Shown piece after piece: positions 959-47,842 of a stretch of 55,002 nucleotides of DNA. The notes beneath the pieces were generated by a model. It did not search any database. It was not told the origin of the DNA and saw only the letters and a program-made list of their open reading frames with translations. The position numbers were made by a program, and so were the translations under genes. Source of the stretch: a virus (Duplodnaviria > Heunggongvirae > Uroviricota > Caudoviricetes); IMG/VR virus record IMGVR_UViG_3300021479_000008, positions 1 to 55,002 of that record; one strand, written 5' to 3'. Each line of letters opens with the position of its first letter. Position 1 is the stretch's first letter.

Positions 959-1458
959 TATCTGACTTCCTTTCCTTTTCTTTCTCCATACAACCCGGTA
1001 TGGCCTTTTCGTTCTGCAACTTCTTGTGACGGCGGTGGTTCCTTCTCTGGCATATCAAAACCTAATACCTTAAACAACGAACGTACTGAGCCGAACAATC
1101 CCCCAACCATTGGAAGTTTCTTTTGTCTCGGATCACTTTCTGGATACAAGACTAAGACTCCTCCTTCTTGGGAAATGTCCGCATCCATCGGTATTGGTAA
1201 TCCATCTACTCCCGACGTCAACTGGTACGATGTTAACACGTGGTCTTCTGGATTCTCTATCCCCTGCTCCTTCATTATACAGATTTGGCAAGCAGTAACT
1301 GAACGTATGATGGGATTTATGACCATCATAATTAACCGACCGCATCTCCGACAATGGATTGGCGTTCTTCCTTGACCATCGGTTCTACGGGGGACCTCGA
1401 AATGGACAAAGTCTCTGAAATTTTCTGCCATGATTGACTCCACAACATCCACAACCAA
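958..1458 (-). CDS. Hypothetical Zn-ribbon protein (start uncertain: 1458, 1431 or 1329)
   Basis: CRRC...CQIC pair; stop abuts the queE start. Confidence 0.6.
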   Translation of the reverse strand: MVVDVVESIMAENFRDFVHFEVPRRTDGQGRTPIHCRRCGRLIMMVINPIIRSVTACQICIMKEQGIENPEDHVLTSYQLTSGVDGLPIPMDADISQEGGVLVLYPESDPRQKKLPMVGGLFGSVRSLFKVLGFDMPEKEPPPSQEVAERKGHTGLYGERKGKEVR

Positions 1459-2186
1459 CTCGCGTTAATCGTTCCTGTTATTCCGTTGTACAATGGCTTC
1501 TTACTACCATACAAAATACCTTCTTCGTTACTGGGAAAGAACTCGAATACGGCTTTGTTCAACGATGCGGCGAGATACGGAACAATTCCACACTGTCCTA
1601 TTACTACGTCAAAGTAGTTCACGTAATTGACTATATCTTTTACTGGGAAAGAGCTTATATCTCTTGGATCTAACGTTAACTCAATCTCAGGATGATTACG
1701 TTGCAGGTACTCGTAAAACTTTTCACTTTCTGTATCATCCCAACGCTGGATTAATACTTGGATACTGTCTGTCTTTTCTCGTTGCAAACGTAACGCATTC
1801 AAGACTGGATTAGGTTTTGCACCGCAACCATACAGTATACTAAAACCATCCACAATGTTTTGACCCAGTTTCAATGCTATACTTTTCGCTCTGTCAAAGT
1901 CTTGATCGAAATCTAGGAAACAATCGTATTCTCGTCTTGCACGTTCTCGCCACCCGGAGTAATCGTATACGGGAACGTTTTCTTTTACTACACGCAGACA
2001 TGGTTCAAAGAATGAAAACCTTTCGTGCATTCTGAACGTAAACATATACTGTCCACGGGAAGTACGCGTAGCATTCTGCATGTTAAACATTCCCGTTGCC
2101 ATTTCCAATTGGTATGCTTGAACGACAGCGATACCAAATAGAAATTCTCGCAAGTCATTGGACATAGTTACTAGGATGTTATCCAC
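1332..2186 (-). CDS. Putative GT-B glycosyltransferase (GT9/heptosyltransferase-like)
   Basis: C-terminal FDVVIGQCGIVPYLAASLNKAVFEFF resembles the GT9 DLVIGxDSGxxHLAAALGKP motif; GT-rich context. Confidence 0.5.
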   Translation of the reverse strand: MDNILVTMSNDLREFLFGIAVVQAYQLEMATGMFNMQNATRTSRGQYMFTFRMHERFSFFEPCLRVVKENVPVYDYSGWRERARREYDCFLDFDQDFDRAKSIALKLGQNIVDGFSILYGCGAKPNPVLNALRLQREKTDSIQVLIQRWDDTESEKFYEYLQRNHPEIELTLDPRDISSFPVKDIVNYVNYFDVVIGQCGIVPYLAASLNKAVFEFFPSNEEGILYGSKKPLYNGITGTINASWLWMLWSQSWQKISETLSISRSPVEPMVKEERQSIVGDAVG

Positions 2187-2187
2187 T

Positions 2188-2505
2188 TTATACCAACTTC
2201 TTTTCTGGATCTATGAAAACCTTCTTAAAATAACAACTAGCGCAGACTTTGGTATTACCAATCTTGTCCCCAAGTTCTGGAAACAACTGAATCGCGTTTT
2301 CTTCCGTGAAATAAGACTTACATTCTGAACACCACAACATTGGTTTTTTAGGACGTTGCTTTACTTCGAGATAGGCTTCGAGTATTGCCGATCCAGCTAG
2401 TACTAAAAATTCGAGTATTGCCGATCCAGCTAGTACTAAAAATATGACTACACCCAATACCAAACATACTACCCAATGCGTTCCCATCCATACTAATACC
2501 TTCAT
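2188..2505 (-). CDS. Membrane-anchored protein with CxxC...CxxC
   Basis: N-terminal hydrophobic helix (partly duplicated); CSEC and CASC. Confidence 0.6.
   Translation of the reverse strand: MKVLVWMGTHWVVCLVLGVVIFLVLAGSAILEFLVLAGSAILEAYLEVKQRPKKPMLWCSECKSYFTEENAIQLFPELGDKIGNTKVCASCYFKKVFIDPEKKLV
2377..2442. repeat. Perfect 33-bp tandem duplication (FLVLAGSAILE x2)
   Basis: ttcgagtattgccgatccagctagtactaaaaa at 2377-2409 and 2410-2442. Confidence 0.95.
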
Positions 2506-4721
2506 GCTGCTACCACCTTGTTGAAAACTCTTCGCCAGTTCTCTACCAACGTCTTGGCGTTGTAGAAACGCTCGGCAACACGATACATCTTCTCACCAAG
2601 CTCTTTTCTACGTTCTGGTTCGTTTACCAACGTAACGATTCTATCTGTCCACTCGGCTGGTGTACGGCAGAGTAACCACTTTAAGTCTTCTCCTCCCAGC
2701 TCGGCGAATTCTCGGTACGGTTGTACGTCACTCGATACACAAGGTACTTTCAACGCAGCGGCTTCTAACATTTTGATACAACTATTGTGTGTTACAATAC
2801 CTGATGGAAGCACAAATAAATGATCTCCATCAACTTCTACTGCAACTGTATTTACTTTCAATCTACTCAACGTAAGTATTTCTCCATTATCTCTTGTGGA
2901 CTGATACTTATCCATGGTTTTTCTTATACTTCCACTAATTATTTTATACTTTTTTCCAAAACCCGTAGCGAATCTTCTGCCAAATCTAAAACGATAACTT
3001 ACCAACAAACATGCTAACTGCAAATCTCTCACTAACTTCCAATTCCGTGTAATACCAAATTTCCAAACATGTTTATTCCCTCTAGTTCCAGCATATTTAC
3101 CATAATTCTCTCCTTTTGGTTTGTGTCCATCTCCTTCTAACCATCCGTCGATAATACCTTTTATAAACTCATCAGATTCTCTCCAAACAGCACGCAGAAG
3201 ATGTTTTGTATATGAATCTTTACCTCCCACAAACTGGTATAATAATCCTCTTAATGTATTCGAATTCGAAAAGGTAAAGCTTGCACCATGTCCTTCTGAT
3301 GATGGACTAACGAAAGTAGTAGCCCCCCACTCTTTCCCCACGTCATGTAATTTCTTTATAAGCCATTCCTTTCGTCCATCAATAGAAATAAAAATAGAAG
3401 TTGATCCACCTATTTTCCCAGTATCGGTTGGATTAGTACTAATACACCCATCAGCTACATACTGTCCAACAAACCATCCTGCTTTATAATTACAAATCCT
3501 AGAAGGATTTATTGGACGATCTGGAAGGTGCGTCGTAACTTCAATCAACGGCTTCCAACGTTCGCCCGAACTCTTACTTCCGACTGATTGCAAAATATCT
3601 CCGATCTTAAGATTTTTAGCTTTGATTATTTTACCGTTACTCAACTTAAATCTATGACTTCTAGTTACGTGGAAAAAGTCACCACCACGTATGCCTACTG
3701 AAACTCCCTTTTTGTTTTTCTGCATCAGTTCCCACGTAATAACTTTTCGCCACTTACCATCTGGTCCGGGTAAATGTTTTTCTTTTCCATCTGCCTTTAA
3801 AAAATGTATCAAACTACATCTTATTGGAACTTCATCAATTAATCCATATATTGACGTTTCAGTAGATAAACACTTACTCCGGTTGAACCTATGGTCAGAC
3901 AGAGGAGCTAACATGAAGTCCCAAGCCCAAGACGCTAAGCGATTCGGATACTCACTGACTGGCACCCAAGGACGAAACAGCGTATGGGGATGCGTGGCAA
4001 TAATACTTTGGGTTAGTACTCTTTGTTTATTGTAGACCGCAAACTGTTGTGCTCCGACTGCATACCCAAGTTTTTCTTTTGTACTGACTATCTTCTCGTC
4101 TATCGCGGGAGCACCAACTATCTCCATTCGCAGGTTCGGATACTTATCGAGTATATCTGGAATTACCGAGAAGCAGTCCTGTACATCTTCCCCGTGAGTG
4201 TTCGATCCGCCCCATCCCATGATTACGAAACCACTGTTATCAACTATTTCTTTGGGATGGAACAAATTTAGGTCTACGGCGTTTGGAACAACTACTATTT
4301 CTTTTCCGAGACGAAAGTTGAACTTGGCTGTGGACGCAAGACCTCTCGTACTCACGGTGAGTATGTCTGCTTCTGCGGCACAACGAGTAAACGAATCCGT
4401 TAACTGGTTAAATGCTTGCTTTCCGGGATTCGAAGCGGGTAGTGCCCATATATCGTCATCTAGATCGTAGACTATCTTTATACCCGCTTGTTTCATTCGT
4501 TTCAATGCGTAAAGGTTTAATTCGCCTACTTGACGCTGGACGACCGCAACTTTATACTGGGATAGCTCAGTAACGTCAAGGGCTCCGAAACGAAGTATGA
4601 ATGCTGAGCCGTACAGGTTCATGTGCGGCTGGAACATACGCCACAACGCACATGCGTCTACGCCCGCTGGCAGAAAGCATATCGGAATATTACTTTGAAC
4701 TATGTTTTGACTTGTGCCCAT
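2502..4721 (-). CDS. GT4-like glycosyltransferase interrupted by an intein
   Basis: DLDDDIW, ADILTVST, VVPNAVD, GWGGSNTH; after splicing FNRSK/SCIKMLEAAALKVPCVSSD. Confidence 0.85.
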   Translation of the reverse strand: MGTSQNIVQSNIPICFLPAGVDACALWRMFQPHMNLYGSAFILRFGALDVTELSQYKVAVVQRQVGELNLYALKRMKQAGIKIVYDLDDDIWALPASNPGKQAFNQLTDSFTRCAAEADILTVSTRGLASTAKFNFRLGKEIVVVPNAVDLNLFHPKEIVDNSGFVIMGWGGSNTHGEDVQDCFSVIPDILDKYPNLRMEIVGAPAIDEKIVSTKEKLGYAVGAQQFAVYNKQRVLTQSIIATHPHTLFRPWVPVSEYPNRLASWAWDFMLAPLSDHRFNRSKCLSTETSIYGLIDEVPIRCSLIHFLKADGKEKHLPGPDGKWRKVITWELMQKNKKGVSVGIRGGDFFHVTRSHRFKLSNGKIIKAKNLKIGDILQSVGSKSSGERWKPLIEVTTHLPDRPINPSRICNYKAGWFVGQYVADGCISTNPTDTGKIGGSTSIFISIDGRKEWLIKKLHDVGKEWGATTFVSPSSEGHGASFTFSNSNTLRGLLYQFVGGKDSYTKHLLRAVWRESDEFIKGIIDGWLEGDGHKPKGENYGKYAGTRGNKHVWKFGITRNWKLVRDLQLACLLVSYRFRFGRRFATGFGKKYKIISGSIRKTMDKYQSTRDNGEILTLSRLKVNTVAVEVDGDHLFVLPSGIVTHNSCIKMLEAAALKVPCVSSDVQPYREFAELGGEDLKWLLCRTPAEWTDRIVTLVNEPERRKELGEKMYRVAERFYNAKTLVENWRRVFNKVVAA
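2784..3872 (-). mobile_element. Intein (363 aa) with in-frame LAGLIDADG homing endonuclease
   Basis: Starts CLSTETSI, block B VTRSH, LAGLIDADG-like GQYVADG and DGWLEGDG, ends VTHN followed by Ser+1. Confidence 0.9.
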
Positions 4722-18704: not shown

Positions 18705-21122
18705 CTATCTGTTTGCTGGCCTCATGCTGATGTTGTCTTTGATCCATGTTCCCAGTTGCGTTCTCGCAGTAAACAACTCCTGCTTTGTCATCGTATCCAA
18801 ATCCAATATCAATGTACTGGGATCGTCGTCGTTTAGTTCCCACATCTTCGAGAAAGCGTCAATCGGAAGTTCTTTGATACCAAAACGTTCTGGGGTAATC
18901 CATACTTGCGATCCCGGATATGGCTGAAACATATGCAGACTAGCTGCGTCGGGTTTCGCTGTCTCCAACCATTTCTGCATCTCGTCTATACTCTCCCAAG
19001 TCTCACCGGGAAAACCTATCAACAAATAGGCTCTGGCGACTATACCCGCGTCTTGGCAAATCTTGATGCCTATCGTGTTTGCTTCTGGAGTAGTTCCTTT
19101 GTTCATGGCTTTGAGCATTCTCGGGGAACCATGCTCGACACCGAATCCCATTTCGGTGCATCCACGTACTGCCATGTACTCGAACAACTTTGGGTCCATC
19201 AGATTAACTCTACTCCATCCGCGCCAGAGCATTCCGTAGTCATGGAATATATCTACCAGCTCCATACAACGTTTTGCTTTGATTGTTAAGACGTCATCCC
19301 ATATTCTCAACGAATTAATGCCATGATTGGCCAACCATTTAACTTCTGCTTCCACCTGAGCAGGGGTTTCTTCACGTAACTTTGTTCTTGCGTCTGCACA
19401 AAAGTAGCACCCATACGGACAATTATGCACTAACACTCCATTCGCAAAGTAGTTATGCACTGGATGAACGGTAATATTATAAACCTTTGCTTTACCAACA
19501 AATGTTTTTTTAACTACCTTTGTCCAAACCCCATAAGCTGTTGTATTAGATGGGACCTGTTGTAGGTTTTCAAATGGCGAGTCCACACTATAAAAATCTT
19601 CCACCCATATTTCTTGTAATCTTTCCGTTCTACCTTGTCTTTTTTCTTGTCTTTGTGCCAATGTTCTCCATGTACCAAAATAGCTTTTTTCTTCTTTGAA
19701 TCTACAAAATCCGGATTTCGTCTTGTGCCAGATATACACGGCCCTATCCAAAACTGTCCATCTCCAACGTAACGAAAGTCTGGAAGATATTGACGTAATA
19801 TAACTTCCAATCTTGCCTCGGGCCTGCTTTGCGTGATCCCTGTTCCGTGAGATCGTTCCCACGGCATCGTCATTAAACCTTTTTTCCATCTCTTGGTCAA
19901 AGCCTTCGACATTATTTTGCTGTATTTCCTCTTGATTGTTTCTGAAACTTTTTTTGCTACTTCCGGACGTTTCATTGGATTCAAGTCGCCTTTCTTGCAT
20001 TCCGATAAAAGCTTCCGAACCCTTTTGGTAGGAACAGGAGGATGCCCCCAAAACTTGGACCGTTCCTCCTTCGTCATTTTCCTCGCCATTCGTCTCATCT
20101 GTCTGTTGCCGTGTGTTGCCATATAAGCTTTGTAACATTCCACAGAACAATACGTTGCCTTCCTGATCTTGTATTCCTGAAACTCGGTCAGACATTGTGG
20201 ACAACATATCCATTCCTTCACAGACATCTTTGATTTCTTCCCATCCATATGGACTCCAAACGGGATGTTCTCCGGTAATCTGTAAAACTGTTCCATTTTC
20301 TAACTTTAATTCCCACACATCAGTTGCATCTCTTTCCCAAACTGCTTGAACCGGAGCTGATACACATTCAGAACTATCTGTATTAAAACCCCGTACTAAA
20401 TCTCCAACTTTAATCGCTTCAACTGGAAGCGCTGTTCCATCGTGTAATGTTACTAACGTTCCTGCTACAATACATCCCCGCGCAGTCCATAAAGAACCAA
20501 TAGTCCGTTCTGTTGCATCCACTGATTTACCATGCTGGGAATTAACAAGTAGACCTCCTTTGCCCCATTCTCCATCCCACAGATCGTATGCTGGTAATGG
20601 CATCTTCAACACATCCGGTAACGGTGGTTGTGGATTGTAATGTATCGTTCCATCTAAGTCAAACCATCCGAAACCCGGCACGTTTAGAATTTTGCCTTGT
20701 TCCCAATCGTTGCAAAACTGGACGAAGGAGTCTTCGCACTCTCCAGCCATGAGATAATCAAAACCTTGAAAGAACTTCTTGTGCTTGAACTGCTTATGTG
20801 GTCCGTGGAGAATATACGTTACATGCGGACCACCTGCTACCTTTACTTTCGCTGGCCATGTGGCAGCAAGCTGTCCTCCGAATTCTGCGTTAGGCGTTAC
20901 GCAACTTACTCCGAGAATATCACATGGCTCAAGCAACTCTTTCAAAACGATTAACTTTCCACGTTCGTTATCCCACGCTGTCAGTTTGTGACAATCAACA
21001 ATCTTTACCTCATGCCCAGCTTCACGTAAAGCCGCACCTAGATAAAGTAAACCAAGGCTAACATGGAGGCTTGGCGTGAATAAAGCAAACGACGGACCGC
21101 CTGTGAGAATTACTTTAGCCAT
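18705..21122 (-). CDS. Cobalamin-binding radical SAM protein interrupted by an intein
   Basis: B12 domain (SLGLLYLGAALREAGH, VAGGPHVT); after splicing TARG/CPYGCYFC; GVEHGS, LLIGFPGET. Confidence 0.9.
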   Translation of the reverse strand: MAKVILTGGPSFALFTPSLHVSLGLLYLGAALREAGHEVKIVDCHKLTAWDNERGKLIVLKELLEPCDILGVSCVTPNAEFGGQLAATWPAKVKVAGGPHVTYILHGPHKQFKHKKFFQGFDYLMAGECEDSFVQFCNDWEQGKILNVPGFGWFDLDGTIHYNPQPPLPDVLKMPLPAYDLWDGEWGKGGLLVNSQHGKSVDATERTIGSLWTARGCIVAGTLVTLHDGTALPVEAIKVGDLVRGFNTDSSECVSAPVQAVWERDATDVWELKLENGTVLQITGEHPVWSPYGWEEIKDVCEGMDMLSTMSDRVSGIQDQEGNVLFCGMLQSLYGNTRQQTDETNGEENDEGGTVQVLGASSCSYQKGSEAFIGMQERRLESNETSGSSKKSFRNNQEEIQQNNVEGFDQEMEKRFNDDAVGTISRNRDHAKQARGKIGSYITSISSRLSLRWRWTVLDRAVYIWHKTKSGFCRFKEEKSYFGTWRTLAQRQEKRQGRTERLQEIWVEDFYSVDSPFENLQQVPSNTTAYGVWTKVVKKTFVGKAKVYNITVHPVHNYFANGVLVHNCPYGCYFCADARTKLREETPAQVEAEVKWLANHGINSLRIWDDVLTIKAKRCMELVDIFHDYGMLWRGWSRVNLMDPKLFEYMAVRGCTEMGFGVEHGSPRMLKAMNKGTTPEANTIGIKICQDAGIVARAYLLIGFPGETWESIDEMQKWLETAKPDAASLHMFQPYPGSQVWITPERFGIKELPIDAFSKMWELNDDDPSTLILDLDTMTKQELFTARTQLGTWIKDNISMRPANR
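19422..20474 (-). mobile_element. Intein (351 aa) with a nested out-of-frame endonuclease gene
   Basis: Starts CIVAGTLV, block B ITGEHP, ends VYNITV...NYFANGVLVHN; the +1 residue is the first Cys of CxxxCxxC. Confidence 0.92.
19514..20296 (-). CDS. Vsr-like (PD-(D/E)xK) homing endonuclease with Zn and NUMOD3-like motifs, +1 frame inside the intein
   Basis: CPQC...YCSVEC; GDLNPMKRPEVAKKVS; SRPEARL...NPDF...ILVHGEHWH; start may be Met24 at 20227. Confidence 0.8.
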   Translation of the reverse strand: MEQFYRLPENIPFGVHMDGKKSKMSVKEWICCPQCLTEFQEYKIRKATYCSVECYKAYMATHGNRQMRRMARKMTKEERSKFWGHPPVPTKRVRKLLSECKKGDLNPMKRPEVAKKVSETIKRKYSKIMSKALTKRWKKGLMTMPWERSHGTGITQSRPEARLEVILRQYLPDFRYVGDGQFWIGPCISGTRRNPDFVDSKKKKAILVHGEHWHKDKKKDKVERKDYKKYGWKIFIVWTRHLKTYNRSHLIQQLMGFGQR

Positions 21123-44910: not shown

Positions 44911-45098
44911 AACTCCGAAATAAACTTAGGTCTTGTTTCCAACGTCAACTGCCACTGATGCCAATAAGTAGATCTACCAACTCTGTACACAAGCGTACCT
45001 ACTTGTAAACCAACGGCACTAACAACTCCACGTCCCTTGGGTGTTTTTACAATATCACCACGTTGAAACTTTGCTGGTATACAACGCAAATCTTTCAT
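44907..45098 (-). CDS. Small SH3/KOW-like protein
   Basis: KFQRGDIVKTPKGRGVV. Confidence 0.5.
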   Translation of the reverse strand: MKDLRCIPAKFQRGDIVKTPKGRGVVSAVGLQVGTLVYRVGRSTYWHQWQLTLETRPKFISEL

Positions 45099-47842
45099 TC
45101 TACCTCCAATCTACTGACTCGATTATGCTTACGTACTGTAATTGTTCTTTCTCCATGTAACTCAGAAAGTATTTCCCGGTTATGACTACAAATCCAGATA
45201 GCGCCAAATCGTTTCTTCAGGTCTTGCAACGAACGAGCAAACTGTCTGGCTGTCTGGGCATCAAGCCCTTCTCCCGGTTCGTCGAGTATCAGAAGATTAC
45301 ATTTCGGGGCTACCTCACGTAAAGCAAAACTGGAAATAAGTCCTGCTAGTGCTCTTTCTCCACTTGACTGATCGTCTATCTCTGCTCCACCTCTTGGGTT
45401 GATGATCTTAGGAGAAAACTCGCCGTCTTCAATCTCAAACCGCACTTGTAACTCATTATCACTGAACAACTCGGCATAATAACTGGCAGCTCGATTAAGT
45501 ACTGGGCACAACTGTACATTAAGAAAAGCGGGGATACCATCTCTGGAAAATGCCTCGGCAGCGAATTGATATACCTTAGATTTTCTCGCATAGTGTTTCA
45601 ACTGTAGCTTCAACTTTGCTTTCTTTCGTTTGAGTTTTCTAAGTCTTGACTCTGCATGTTTGATTGTTCTTGATTCTTTGGACTTGGCCAATATATCGGC
45701 GTACTGCGAACGCAACGTTTTCTCCTGCAAACTAAGTTTAGTAAACTGTTCCTGTTCTTCGTATTCCTTATCCTGTAACACACTAACTTTTTTGTCATAA
45801 CGTTTTAACCTTTTCTCTGCTTCATCCCATATCCTACGTCTTCGATCGAACTCGGCTTGTACTTTTTTGGAATAACGCTTTGTCCACGTCTTACTGACTG
45901 GTTGGAAACACGTTGGACATTCTTTCTTATGGGCGACTTTAAACCACCTACCACTTACCTCTGTATATTGCTCGAACTCACGTTGACTGACTATATACTT
46001 TTCCTTCAGCTTATTCAACTTATGAATCTGACTTACCAACTTCTTGTTACTGGGGCAAATGATCTTTGATAACTCCTTCTTGGCATTTTCCCAATTCTCT
46101 TTCACGTTCCTTAACTGAATACTGGAAATAGACTTGAGATCTACTATGGAACGTACTGTATGCTTGATTGCTTCTCTGGCCCCATTCAACTTCCCAAGTA
46201 TTCTATAACGCTTGGCTTCATTTTCAGTAATATCCAACTTTACAAGCTTAAGCGCTTTTTCAAAACGTTCAAGATTTTGGACGCGAGACAATACTTCAGT
46301 TCTGGACTTTCTGGTTCCAGATAGAAACGCATTGGCAACAGATCTGTCAATGTAAACGGCGTTGGCAAGCGTTTGCCAAGTAAAACCTGTACTTTGTTCA
46401 ATTTGAATCTGTGTAGTACCTTCTTTTCTGTCATTTGATTTCATCCCCGAACTAACATCTACTCCATCTTTCTTCATCTGTAGCATTGGTGGCCTACGAC
46501 CACGTTTTATCTGAATGATCTGACCTTGATGATTTCGTAACTTCAACCTAACGTATGCTTCATCTTTTGTCCAACGACTGGCCCAACTGTCATGCTTCTG
46601 TTCTTTAAACGTCCTACCAAATAAAGCGACTGGAATAGGCTGTAACAATGATGTCTTTCCGGACCCGTTGCTCTTACCACCTCTGTCTTCGTTTACTCCC
46701 CGAATAATAGTAATACCATTACTTGAAAGATCAACGTCAAGTGTTCTGTATGAAAGAAAGTTCTTGGCTCTCATACTAAGAAACTTCATACTAAGACTTT
46801 GACGTGTACCACCTTCACACTGGGATAGGACTTGGAGCATGTACTCTATAACCATCGACGGGGCATTCTTGCTTTGCTTAATAAATTCTCGTACTTTCTT
46901 TTCGTCGGAATCGGATGTGCTAATTCTGGATCGTCCAAAGTCGCTAACGCTTTCATTGAACTTTGGTACGACGAAGATTTCTGCTCCTTTATACTTTCGT
47001 TCTGCTGTATGTCTAGCTTTTTCAAGTCGTCTACCGTAATCTTGACTAGCATCACAGGACACGGGATATCTAATCCTGGTGCCTGTCCAGCTCGTAGGCT
47101 TATATCTTTCAAACCCATCGACACTGACGTCATACCATCCTGGGATGGTTGAAAGCTCAGATGCGAGCCCATCTTTCCCCACAATAATATATCGTTTTTG
47201 TTGATTGACTTCACCCCAATCTGTGCAGAAAGGGCTTCCAACATAATACGTCTGCGTTCCTTCAATACGTTGCGGTAGATGGATATGACCAGCAATAGTG
47301 TATCTATAACTAGTAACCCGAAGATCGCCCACAGAAAGTTTTGCATCTGACTTACCTCCCAAATTATTGTACTTTGCTCCACTAATGTCTTGGTGAAACA
47401 ACAACACATCTTTCGTTTTATCTGGGTGTGACTTTAGTAAATTCTTGGCTGATGCTTTTACGTTTGCTACTGTATCCCAAGGGAGAATAAACAACCTCTC
47501 TTCTCCTGTGTTGTATATACCCGGTTTATCGTATGTCTTGGCCCCTGCTCGGCGTAATATTGAAAACCAGTTATTGGCCTGCGTGTACTGCCCTATCCTG
47601 TCGTGGTTTCCAAGTACACATATGACTGTGTATCCAAGTTTTACTGCTTGGCGTATTGCCCTTTGCCACCACTGCACAACTCTAACGTCCACTGGATTGT
47701 ATGTGGCTTTGAGGTCTCCACATACTACGATCGTACGCAGCTTATACTTCTTGCACAAACGCAGTATCTGATCCCATGCTTTGGAGCAGAGATCCAGATT
47801 TGAAAAGTCACACTGAAAATCGCCTGTAACTAAAAACGACAT
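45095..47842 (-). CDS. SbcD/Mre11 nuclease fused to SbcC/Rad50 ATPase (gp47-gp46-like)
   Basis: GDL, GNHD, GHIH phosphoesterase motifs; NGSGKTS Walker A, CPTC hook, SSGE signature, LLILDEP Walker B, all in one ORF. Confidence 0.9.
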   Translation of the reverse strand: MSFLVTGDFQCDFSNLDLCSKAWDQILRLCKKYKLRTIVVCGDLKATYNPVDVRVVQWWQRAIRQAVKLGYTVICVLGNHDRIGQYTQANNWFSILRRAGAKTYDKPGIYNTGEERLFILPWDTVANVKASAKNLLKSHPDKTKDVLLFHQDISGAKYNNLGGKSDAKLSVGDLRVTSYRYTIAGHIHLPQRIEGTQTYYVGSPFCTDWGEVNQQKRYIIVGKDGLASELSTIPGWYDVSVDGFERYKPTSWTGTRIRYPVSCDASQDYGRRLEKARHTAERKYKGAEIFVVPKFNESVSDFGRSRISTSDSDEKKVREFIKQSKNAPSMVIEYMLQVLSQCEGGTRQSLSMKFLSMRAKNFLSYRTLDVDLSSNGITIIRGVNEDRGGKSNGSGKTSLLQPIPVALFGRTFKEQKHDSWASRWTKDEAYVRLKLRNHQGQIIQIKRGRRPPMLQMKKDGVDVSSGMKSNDRKEGTTQIQIEQSTGFTWQTLANAVYIDRSVANAFLSGTRKSRTEVLSRVQNLERFEKALKLVKLDITENEAKRYRILGKLNGAREAIKHTVRSIVDLKSISSIQLRNVKENWENAKKELSKIICPSNKKLVSQIHKLNKLKEKYIVSQREFEQYTEVSGRWFKVAHKKECPTCFQPVSKTWTKRYSKKVQAEFDRRRRIWDEAEKRLKRYDKKVSVLQDKEYEEQEQFTKLSLQEKTLRSQYADILAKSKESRTIKHAESRLRKLKRKKAKLKLQLKHYARKSKVYQFAAEAFSRDGIPAFLNVQLCPVLNRAASYYAELFSDNELQVRFEIEDGEFSPKIINPRGGAEIDDQSSGERALAGLISSFALREVAPKCNLLILDEPGEGLDAQTARQFARSLQDLKKRFGAIWICSHNREILSELHGERTITVRKHNRVSRLEVE

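Follow-up and report, generated by a model that had tools for sequence, protein, structure and literature searches.

The 55,002-nucleotide stretch of phage DNA analysed here (the window; positions 1 to 55,002 of the IMG/VR record IMGVR_UViG_3300021479_000008, Caudoviricetes) carries a gene for a radical SAM enzyme that is interrupted by an intein, and the middle part of the intein codes in two frames of the same strand. The frame of the intein stays open throughout, while the +1 frame encodes a protein with the fold and the catalytic residues of a Vsr-like nuclease. Very probably, this is a mobile, non-canonical intein whose homing endonuclease is a separately translated gene in the +1 frame, with splicing as the reason why the host frame stays open. 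The features of the locus are listed in Table 1.

The host protein contains a B12-binding domain (residues 20-135) and a Radical_SAM domain (residues 565-719), and between them Pfam detects Intein_splicing (E 3.2e-12, above the cut-off), PT-HINT and Hint. The intein is positioned directly before Cys568, the first cysteine of the radical SAM CxxxCxxC motif (CPYGCYFC). It has the complete set of class-1 splicing residues, namely Cys1, a block B TxxH (here TGEHP), a C-terminal His-Asn and a +1 Cys. The N-terminal Cys and TGEHP are conserved across loci, and the C-terminus, ...VLVHN/C568 (a slash marks the junction), reads VHN/C in all relatives that reach the junction. In an AlphaFold2 model of the intein frame, which was built together with the sequences of relatives, both Hint parts are made up of β-strands. 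The mean pLDDT scores (predicted local distance difference test) of ten-residue blocks are 74-90 up to residue 70 and 52-56 for residues 71-86 of the N-terminal part, and the strands of the C-terminal part, which is 51-62% identical across loci, are confident. The linker between them (residues 87-317) has pLDDT values below 50 and zero secondary structure and is modelled as disordered. Judged by its residues and its predicted fold, the intein appears to belong to class 1 (Hint superfamily), and it probably splices. The original prediction, which was made without database searches, had called an intein of 351 residues with normal N- and C-terminal splicing blocks and a middle that does not resemble a domain. 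Pfam, the splicing residues and the alignment agree with the former, the structureless stretch of 231 residues in the model bears out the latter, and all coordinates of the prediction are correct. The GC (guanine plus cytosine) content of the C-terminal splicing part (19422-19513) is 0.315, compared with 0.465 in the exteins, 0.423 in the endonuclease open reading frame (ORF) and 0.441 in the whole window.

The nested ORF is in the +1 frame because its start corresponds to offset 826 of the host gene. In an alignment of its product with four relatives (A3, five sequences), the four cysteines of a Zn-ribbon (C32, C35, C50 and C54) and an NPMKRPxVA...KVS motif are invariant, as are E160, P195-D196-F197, H209-G210-E211, W213-H214, D226-Y227 and W238 in the core. 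E160, D196, H214 and D226 fit the EDxHD pattern (as defined in PMC3239194). A Foldseek search with the AlphaFold2 model of the nested protein places the catalytic domain of I-Bth0305I (PDB id: 3R3P) first, with a probability of 1.0 and a TM-score of 0.71 by target, followed by E. coli Vsr (1CW0 and 1VSR). The same structures are found by a family profile search (3R3P with E 9.4e-5 and Vsr 1CW0 with E 2e-4), and in the hidden Markov model alignment the PDF of the endonuclease (D196) falls on Asp51 of Vsr and its WH (H214) on His69. Residues 28-136 match phrog_3339, annotated as 'homing endonuclease' (E 3.6e-4). Pfam finds no NUMOD domain in the nested protein (P0002), and one relative (P0006) has a weak NUMOD3 match. 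These results support the prediction that the product of the +1 ORF is a Vsr-like nuclease of the EDxHD family with a Zn motif, and such a protein would be expected to cleave DNA. The uncultivated 119-kb phage genome has one copy of the endonuclease.

Stops within the nested ORF number 0 in the intein frame and 17 in the third frame. When synonymous codons were shuffled 5000 times, a procedure that preserves the nested protein and its codon usage, the intein frame acquired on average 14.4-14.5 ± 2.5 stops and never fewer than 5-6 (P for zero stops below 1/5000), while the third frame, with 16.7 stops in the shuffles, matched the observed count. The original prediction had pointed out that the nested protein contains more than 35 lysines and nevertheless causes no stop in the intein frame, and that codons ending in T should be depleted before AA, AG or GA. 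The protein in fact has 38 lysines. Of the 83 nested codons that start with AA, AG or GA, not one follows a codon ending in T, though 22% of all nested codons do end in T. Four related loci described below show the same avoidance, with 0 stops observed versus 11.5 in the shuffles for L001, 10.1 for L027, 5.6 for L025 and 5.1 for L026. The absence of stops is thus significant in all five loci tested (P 0.0014-0.002 in the GC-rich ones and below 1/5000 in the others), and the intein frame is open far beyond chance.

Selection acts differently on the two frames. Between the window and L001, the endonuclease frame is 46% identical in amino acid sequence, and differences at the first, second and third codon positions amount to 0.42, 0.35 and 0.68, which is the signature of purifying selection. 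The same DNA read in the intein frame gives 28.5% identity, and there the first codon position changes most. The ratio of nonsynonymous to synonymous substitution rates (dN/dS), calculated with NG86 from closely related pairs (L044, L046, L048, L077, and L027 versus L047), is 0.16-0.43 in the endonuclease frame, 0.6-1.5 (about 1) in the intein frame and 1.3-2.6 in the third frame. The endonuclease is therefore maintained as a protein, and the intein frame is merely kept free of stops. Selection to keep the host frame open had been proposed originally; stops are avoided completely in this frame, and its amino acids show no constraint.

Table 1. Features of the interrupted radical SAM gene and its nested endonuclease gene (window coordinates)
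Feature	Position	Strand	Basis
Host gene, class B (B12-binding) radical SAM enzyme, 805 codons with intein	18705-21122	-	Pfam
N-extein, residues 1-216, ending ...SLWTARG	20475-21122	-	Comparison with intein-less alleles
Intein, 351 residues, Cys217 (CIVAGT) to Asn567 (VLVHN)	19422-20474	-	Pfam and alignment
N-terminal Hint part, intein residues 1-86	20217-20474	-	AlphaFold2 β-strands
TAG in the endonuclease frame, 5' limit of the nested ORF, just after intein block B	20300-20302	-	
Nested ORF, at most 260 codons, Zn-ribbon, NUMOD-like and Vsr-like/EDxHD homing endonuclease	19514-20296	-	Frame +1
Likeliest endonuclease start, GGAG (20257-20254), 5-nt spacer, ATG (20248-20246, Met17)	20246-20257	-	Inferred
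Overprinted linker, intein residues 87-317 (231 residues), intein frame	19524-20216	-	Zero stops, AlphaFold2
Endonuclease Zn-ribbon, C32, C35 ... C50, C54 (CPQC...CSVEC)	20135-20203	-	Invariant Cys in A3
Vsr-like nuclease core, residues ~155-260, with E160, D196 (NPDF), H214 (HGEHWH) and D226	19517-19834	-	A3, Foldseek, hidden Markov model
C-terminal Hint part, intein residues 318-351, blocks F/G: VYNITVHPVHNYFANGVLVHN	19422-19523	-	AlphaFold2 confident strands
C-extein, its first residues being the radical SAM cluster motif CPYGCYFC	18705-19421	-	Allele comparison

The arrangement is not confined to the window. A word-index search found four relatives, the closest of which is on a 1041-bp JGI contig, L001, with the identical arrangement: 346 codons are open in one frame, which ends with ...VYNLTVCPTHSYVVNGLIVHN/CPFACGFCGG, and the endonuclease is in +1 relative to it. 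An exhaustive phmmer search collected 2865 family members, and all three contigs with the best matches (L025, L026 and L027) have the layout of the window. A scan of metagenomes with the endonuclease alignment yielded 63 loci. In ten of the eleven closest (L043-L051, L077 and L086), the intein frame is free of stops across the endonuclease ORF, the exception being L048 with one, and their complete host ORFs encode radical SAM proteins of 842-952 residues. The search of metagenomes for other inteins with nested +1 ORFs, which had been suggested along with the original prediction, has thus brought 15 such loci besides the window. Their GC content is 0.38-0.64, the frame offset is common to all 16 loci, and the endonuclease ORF is intact in every one (two are cut by contig ends).

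The more distant relatives from the scan have 9-104 stops in the corresponding frame (35 of 35) and are therefore free-standing genes. In viral contigs, 19 of the 20 relatives are likewise free-standing, with 12-54 stops, and the twentieth, in L013 (1942-5514), is encoded in frame inside an intein of a phage helicase; thus, one nuclease family is seen free-standing, in frame and out of frame. The L013 helicase intein reads ...YTGDGSFWV...NPDF...YWHT... and then NHNYFANSVLVSN/C. In a maximum-likelihood tree, the 14 nested endonucleases found at the radical SAM site described here form one clade (support 100/98) among free-standing relatives, a position that fits the origin of the nested endonuclease from a free-standing gene and the earlier view of it as an invader. 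Three further searches returned no match: one of 185,579 prokaryote genomes that used the endonuclease alignment, a single-sequence scan of viral contigs, and blastn of the host gene against GenBank phages. One of the free-standing relatives, L002 (5001-5939), which has a weak NUMOD3 match, is flanked in a 91-kb contig by the gene of an STT3/PglB-like oligosaccharyltransferase on one side and further glycosylation genes on the other, and overlaps both neighbours by a few bases.

The endonuclease of L086 falls outside the 14-member clade, on a long branch. At this locus (1454-3628), the host is a different radical SAM protein, and the intein precedes the third Cys of its CxxxCxxC motif (CNHDCFF/CLVAGT...VVHN/CVYAQ); the protein is apparently of the SPASM type, as judged only from its Cys-rich C-terminal tail. 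A Vsr-like ORF is nested in the +1 frame of this intein as well, and the host frame has no stops, with the HGExWH motif of the nuclease being degenerate. L086 may be a case in which the layout arose a second time, or a copy in decay.

The distribution of the intein in phages is patchy. Among phage alleles of the radical SAM gene, the 14 closest, the C-exteins of which are 55-78% identical to that of the window, all lack the intein, which fits a mobile element. These alleles read ...SLWTARG/CPYGCSFCADAR, so that the insertion is located exactly between G and C. In the intein-less phage allele L037, the exteins of which are 72-78% identical to those of the window, the junction is ...ACTGCGCGGGGA/TGTCCGTATGGG... 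A metagenomic orthologue, L043, carries the element, and its endonuclease is merely 48-49% identical to that of the window. Compared to L025 and L027, the window has exteins that are about 30% identical, an intein that is 38-41% identical in its N-terminal part and 51-58% in its C-terminal part, and an endonuclease that is 38-40% identical. The intein and its endonuclease (38-58%) are therefore better conserved than the proteins that surround them. These data fit a mobile element that spreads, presumably by homing, from one radical SAM gene to another, distant one and uses the conserved cluster motif as its site.

In the mechanism that we propose, the radical SAM precursor would be translated through its whole length in frame 0. 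Its 86-residue N-terminal and 34-residue C-terminal Hint parts would fold together, and the 231-residue tether between them would need only to be free of stops. Splicing would then join Gly216 to Cys568 and rebuild the CxxxCxxC iron-sulfur motif. Ribosomes would also start independently within the intein, most likely at ATG 20248 behind GGAG, and make a Zn-ribbon/NUMOD-like/Vsr-like endonuclease of the EDxHD family, ~244 residues long. The endonuclease would be expected to cut intein-less alleles (...TARG/CPYGC...) in co-infecting phages, and repair of the cut would copy the element into them.

Internal initiation is the most likely route to the endonuclease because stops upstream bound the gene and leave little room for a fusion made by frameshifting. 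A stop in the endonuclease frame is found from a few to ~30 codons upstream of the Zn-ribbon in the window and in L025, L026, L043, L044, L048, L051 and L077; in L027, L047, L049 and L050 this frame is open for 45-100 codons upstream. Other genes of the phage have GGAG or AGGAG 5-9 nt upstream of their start codons. Three ATGs precede the Zn-ribbon: Met1 has no such site, Met17 has GGAG at 5 nt, and Met24 has only GGGA at 11 nt. Met17 is thus a better candidate for the start than Met24 (20227), which had been put forward originally. In L027, AGGAG is located 7 nt upstream of a TTG start of the endonuclease.

Several observations weigh against this interpretation. Several relatives have only a weak ribosome-binding site ahead of the nested gene, or none, which weakens the case for internal initiation. 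The sequence is present in none of the public RNA runs. Single-sequence searches with the nested protein are weak, giving a lone Vsr match in Pfam (E 0.0024) and no match for phmmer against the PDB, and the nuclease assignment comes from profile and fold matches, the latter obtained with a model that has a mean pLDDT of 64.8 (~80 in the core and below 50 in residues 1-24). Furthermore, two relatives, L027 and L048, have a single TGA in the intein frame, so the arrangement can decay or the contigs contain errors.

The endonuclease could instead be made by programmed +1 frameshifting from the host frame, as a fusion of the N-extein and the intein's N-terminal part with the nuclease, without any internal start. 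The lack of a clear Shine-Dalgarno sequence before several nested starts and the overlap of both frames on one strand speak for such a product. We consider it improbable, since in most loci the shift would have to occur within the very short stretch that follows the stop ~3-30 codons upstream of the Zn-ribbon, the window and L027 have good GGAG or AGGAG sites with start codons, and free-standing relatives are translated on their own; no conserved slippery site was noticed in the start regions inspected, although no dedicated search for one was made. The +1 ORF could also be a decaying relic in a mini-intein with a junk spacer that has lost homing. The active-site region of the long-branched L086 is degenerate, and inheritance looks vertical in some lineages, both of which are compatible with decay. 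However, a relic is very improbable in view of ORFs that are intact in all 16 loci, catalytic residues that are invariant in the five sequences of A3, the low dN/dS of the endonuclease frame and the absence of the intein from all 14 related phage alleles, which fits a recent gain.

An artefact of assembly or sequencing, in which the nuclease is truly in frame and two compensating indels hide this, or in which the host frame is open by chance, is hardly credible. The genome is metagenome-derived and was covered at a depth of only ~13x, and the check was made on Logan contigs rather than on raw reads. The sequence occurs in only one public run, a soil metagenome that is probably the source sample. 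A 65-kb contig (depth ~13) from the independent Logan assembly of this run shows 0 differences and 0 gaps compared to positions 19000-20900 of the window. This identity and the same offset in 15 independent loci exclude, at the contig level, the compensating indels that had been named as a possible refutation. The +1 offset and the zero-stop pattern recur in contigs from different samples over the whole GC range, and for the window the shuffles make a stop-free frame by chance rarer than 1/5000. Another arrangement to be considered is the one known from fractured genes (Dassa et al. 2009), in which the intein is split and the two halves of the enzyme are made apart and joined in trans. It is known to have Vsr-like endonuclease genes between the split-intein halves (PMC2677866), and the TGA of L027 follows block B and precedes the AGGAG-TTG start by 25 nt, so that L027 looks like the 5' side of such a gene. 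For the window this is highly improbable, because its host frame runs through all 805 codons without interruption and has no stop after the intein's N-terminal part, and L027 itself has no credible start for a C-terminal intein part and differs from L047 by a single GGA-to-TGA change.

The two TGA codons differ in their relation to the endonuclease. In L027, TGA (841-843) stands right after block B (ITGEHPIFTRE*W, where the asterisk is the stop), at a position where L047 has GGA (Gly); because the endonuclease starts only at TTG 869, the codon is outside the called endonuclease ORF. Either L027 carries a nonsense mutation here, or the assembly is wrong, or a split is beginning. Reading TGA as Gly in L027 was rejected, as it is the sole in-frame TGA in 824 codons, and so was a working fractured gene, given the missing start of the C-terminal part. 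In L048, TGA (603-605) coincides with AAT-GAG (Asn-Glu) of the endonuclease frame, a codon ending in T before one starting with GA that is not seen in the other 15 loci, and presumably arose by a synonymous change of AAC to AAT.

The original prediction knew of no formal description of such an architecture, but intein endonucleases that are out of frame have been reported (10.1101/2025.01.02.630785, 10.64898/2026.09.14.751524), as have comparable genes outside inteins (PMC11855218). Gosselin, Arsenault & Gogarten (10.1101/2025.01.02.630785) described actinophage inteins in which the endonuclease is located between the splicing blocks out of the frame of the splicing domain, in three types (LAGLIDADG and VSR-like endonucleases on the antisense strand, and endonuclease VII-like ones in frame 3 of the same strand), and proposed that free-standing endonuclease genes invade inteins. 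The intein described here is likewise contiguous and has its endonuclease in another frame between the splicing blocks. Unlike in those inteins, where VSR-like genes are antisense and the same-strand gene is endonuclease VII-like, the VSR-like gene is on the sense strand, in +1, and the host is a radical SAM enzyme of a soil phage with 44% GC rather than a terminase, polymerase, capsid or thymidylate synthase of high-GC actinophages. Phillips, DeSimone & Gogarten (10.64898/2026.09.14.751524) found an out-of-frame LAGLIDADG gene in a cyanobacterial DnaX intein and proposed secondary invasion of a mini-intein; their account credits Gorbalenya 1998 with the first proposal of an out-of-frame intein endonuclease. 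Overlapping frames, an open host frame, low dN/dS in the endonuclease frame with raised dN/dS in the intein frame and a sporadic distribution are common to both cases, whereas the DnaX intein has a LAGLIDADG nuclease, a bacterial chromosomal host gene and a different offset (+2 ORF).

The fractured genes of Dassa et al. 2009 (PMC2677866) share with the present clade the endonuclease family, the origin from phage-type environmental DNA, the position on the same strand between N- and C-terminal intein halves, an endonuclease start of its own and an overlap with the C-terminal intein part. They differ in having a stop after the N-terminal half and a new start before the C-terminal half, while here the frame is continuous and is kept free of stops by selection. 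The EDxHD family was defined by Taylor et al. 2011 (PMC3239194) by the residues of this name, and the D196A and H213A substitutions inactivate I-Bth0305I. The nested endonuclease resembles I-Bth0305I (3R3P) in the conserved E/D/H/D residues and in the order of a DNA-binding region, putative in the nested protein, at the N-terminus and a Vsr-like core at the C-terminus. However, I-Bth0305I comes from a group I intron in recA and carries NUMOD2/helix-turn-helix repeats, whereas the nested protein, encoded inside an intein, combines a Zn-ribbon with a NUMOD3-like NPMKRPEV motif, and the two are ~22% identical over the aligned core. The ShiLan-type hidden HNH genes that lie within methylase genes of phages (Arsenault et al. 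2025, PMC11855218) are also out-of-frame endonuclease genes in a host gene with an open frame; unlike the present element, they have no splicing domain, stay in the host protein and encode an HNH nuclease. Our literature search found no report of a sense-strand +1 VSR-like/EDxHD endonuclease in a contiguous intein, of a radical SAM intein host with the insertion at the first Cys of CxxxCxxC, or of a deep nested clade with at least 14 members and a wide GC range. The kind of layout is thus already known; what is new is that the Vsr-like endonuclease is on the sense strand, that a radical SAM gene is the host, and how large the clade is.

The endonuclease family, strand and position that the clade shares with the fractured genes allow the tentative and rather speculative suggestion that it is their contiguous counterpart and evolutionary neighbour, and that overprinting is a stage that selection can act on and that lasts long on the route between mini-inteins, split inteins and canonical inteins with an in-frame endonuclease. 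A contiguous intein would be broken by one point mutation that is silent in the endonuclease, presumably as in L048, and in L027 it is broken by the change of GGA to TGA. Under selection the arrangement is stable, as dual coding over ~0.7 kb is kept down to ~30% identity and across the GC range of 0.38-0.64. Expression of the endonuclease might be throttled when the host frame is translated.

Overprinted intein endonucleases are consequently not limited to actinophages or cyanobacteria, and the endonuclease family of the fractured genes is now tied to contiguous inteins. Class B radical SAM enzymes are an added intein host, struck exactly at the iron-sulfur cluster motif. In the output of gene callers, such loci appear either as a single long gene whose insert is unexplained or as hypothetical genes that overlap, and a stop-avoidance test of the kind used here finds them. 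An intein that tolerates an unstructured insert of 231 residues and a nuclease of modular architecture with a long target are possible tools.

Elsewhere in the window, a gene on the minus strand (2502-4721) encodes a 739-residue glycosyltransferase with a GT1/GT4-type C-terminus and an apparent second intein with an in-frame LAGLIDADG-like endonuclease. By eye, this intein runs from CLSTETS... through VADGCIS and LEGDGH to ...GIVTHN/S; Pfam detects no intein or LAGLIDADG domain in the 739-residue protein. A +1 ORF of 187 codons (46846-47409) was rejected as a chance ORF, as it has no family match and is not protein-like. It is located in a minus-strand gene (45095-47842) for a 915-residue fusion of an SbcD-like metallophosphatase (residues 1-189) with an SbcC/SMC-like ATPase.

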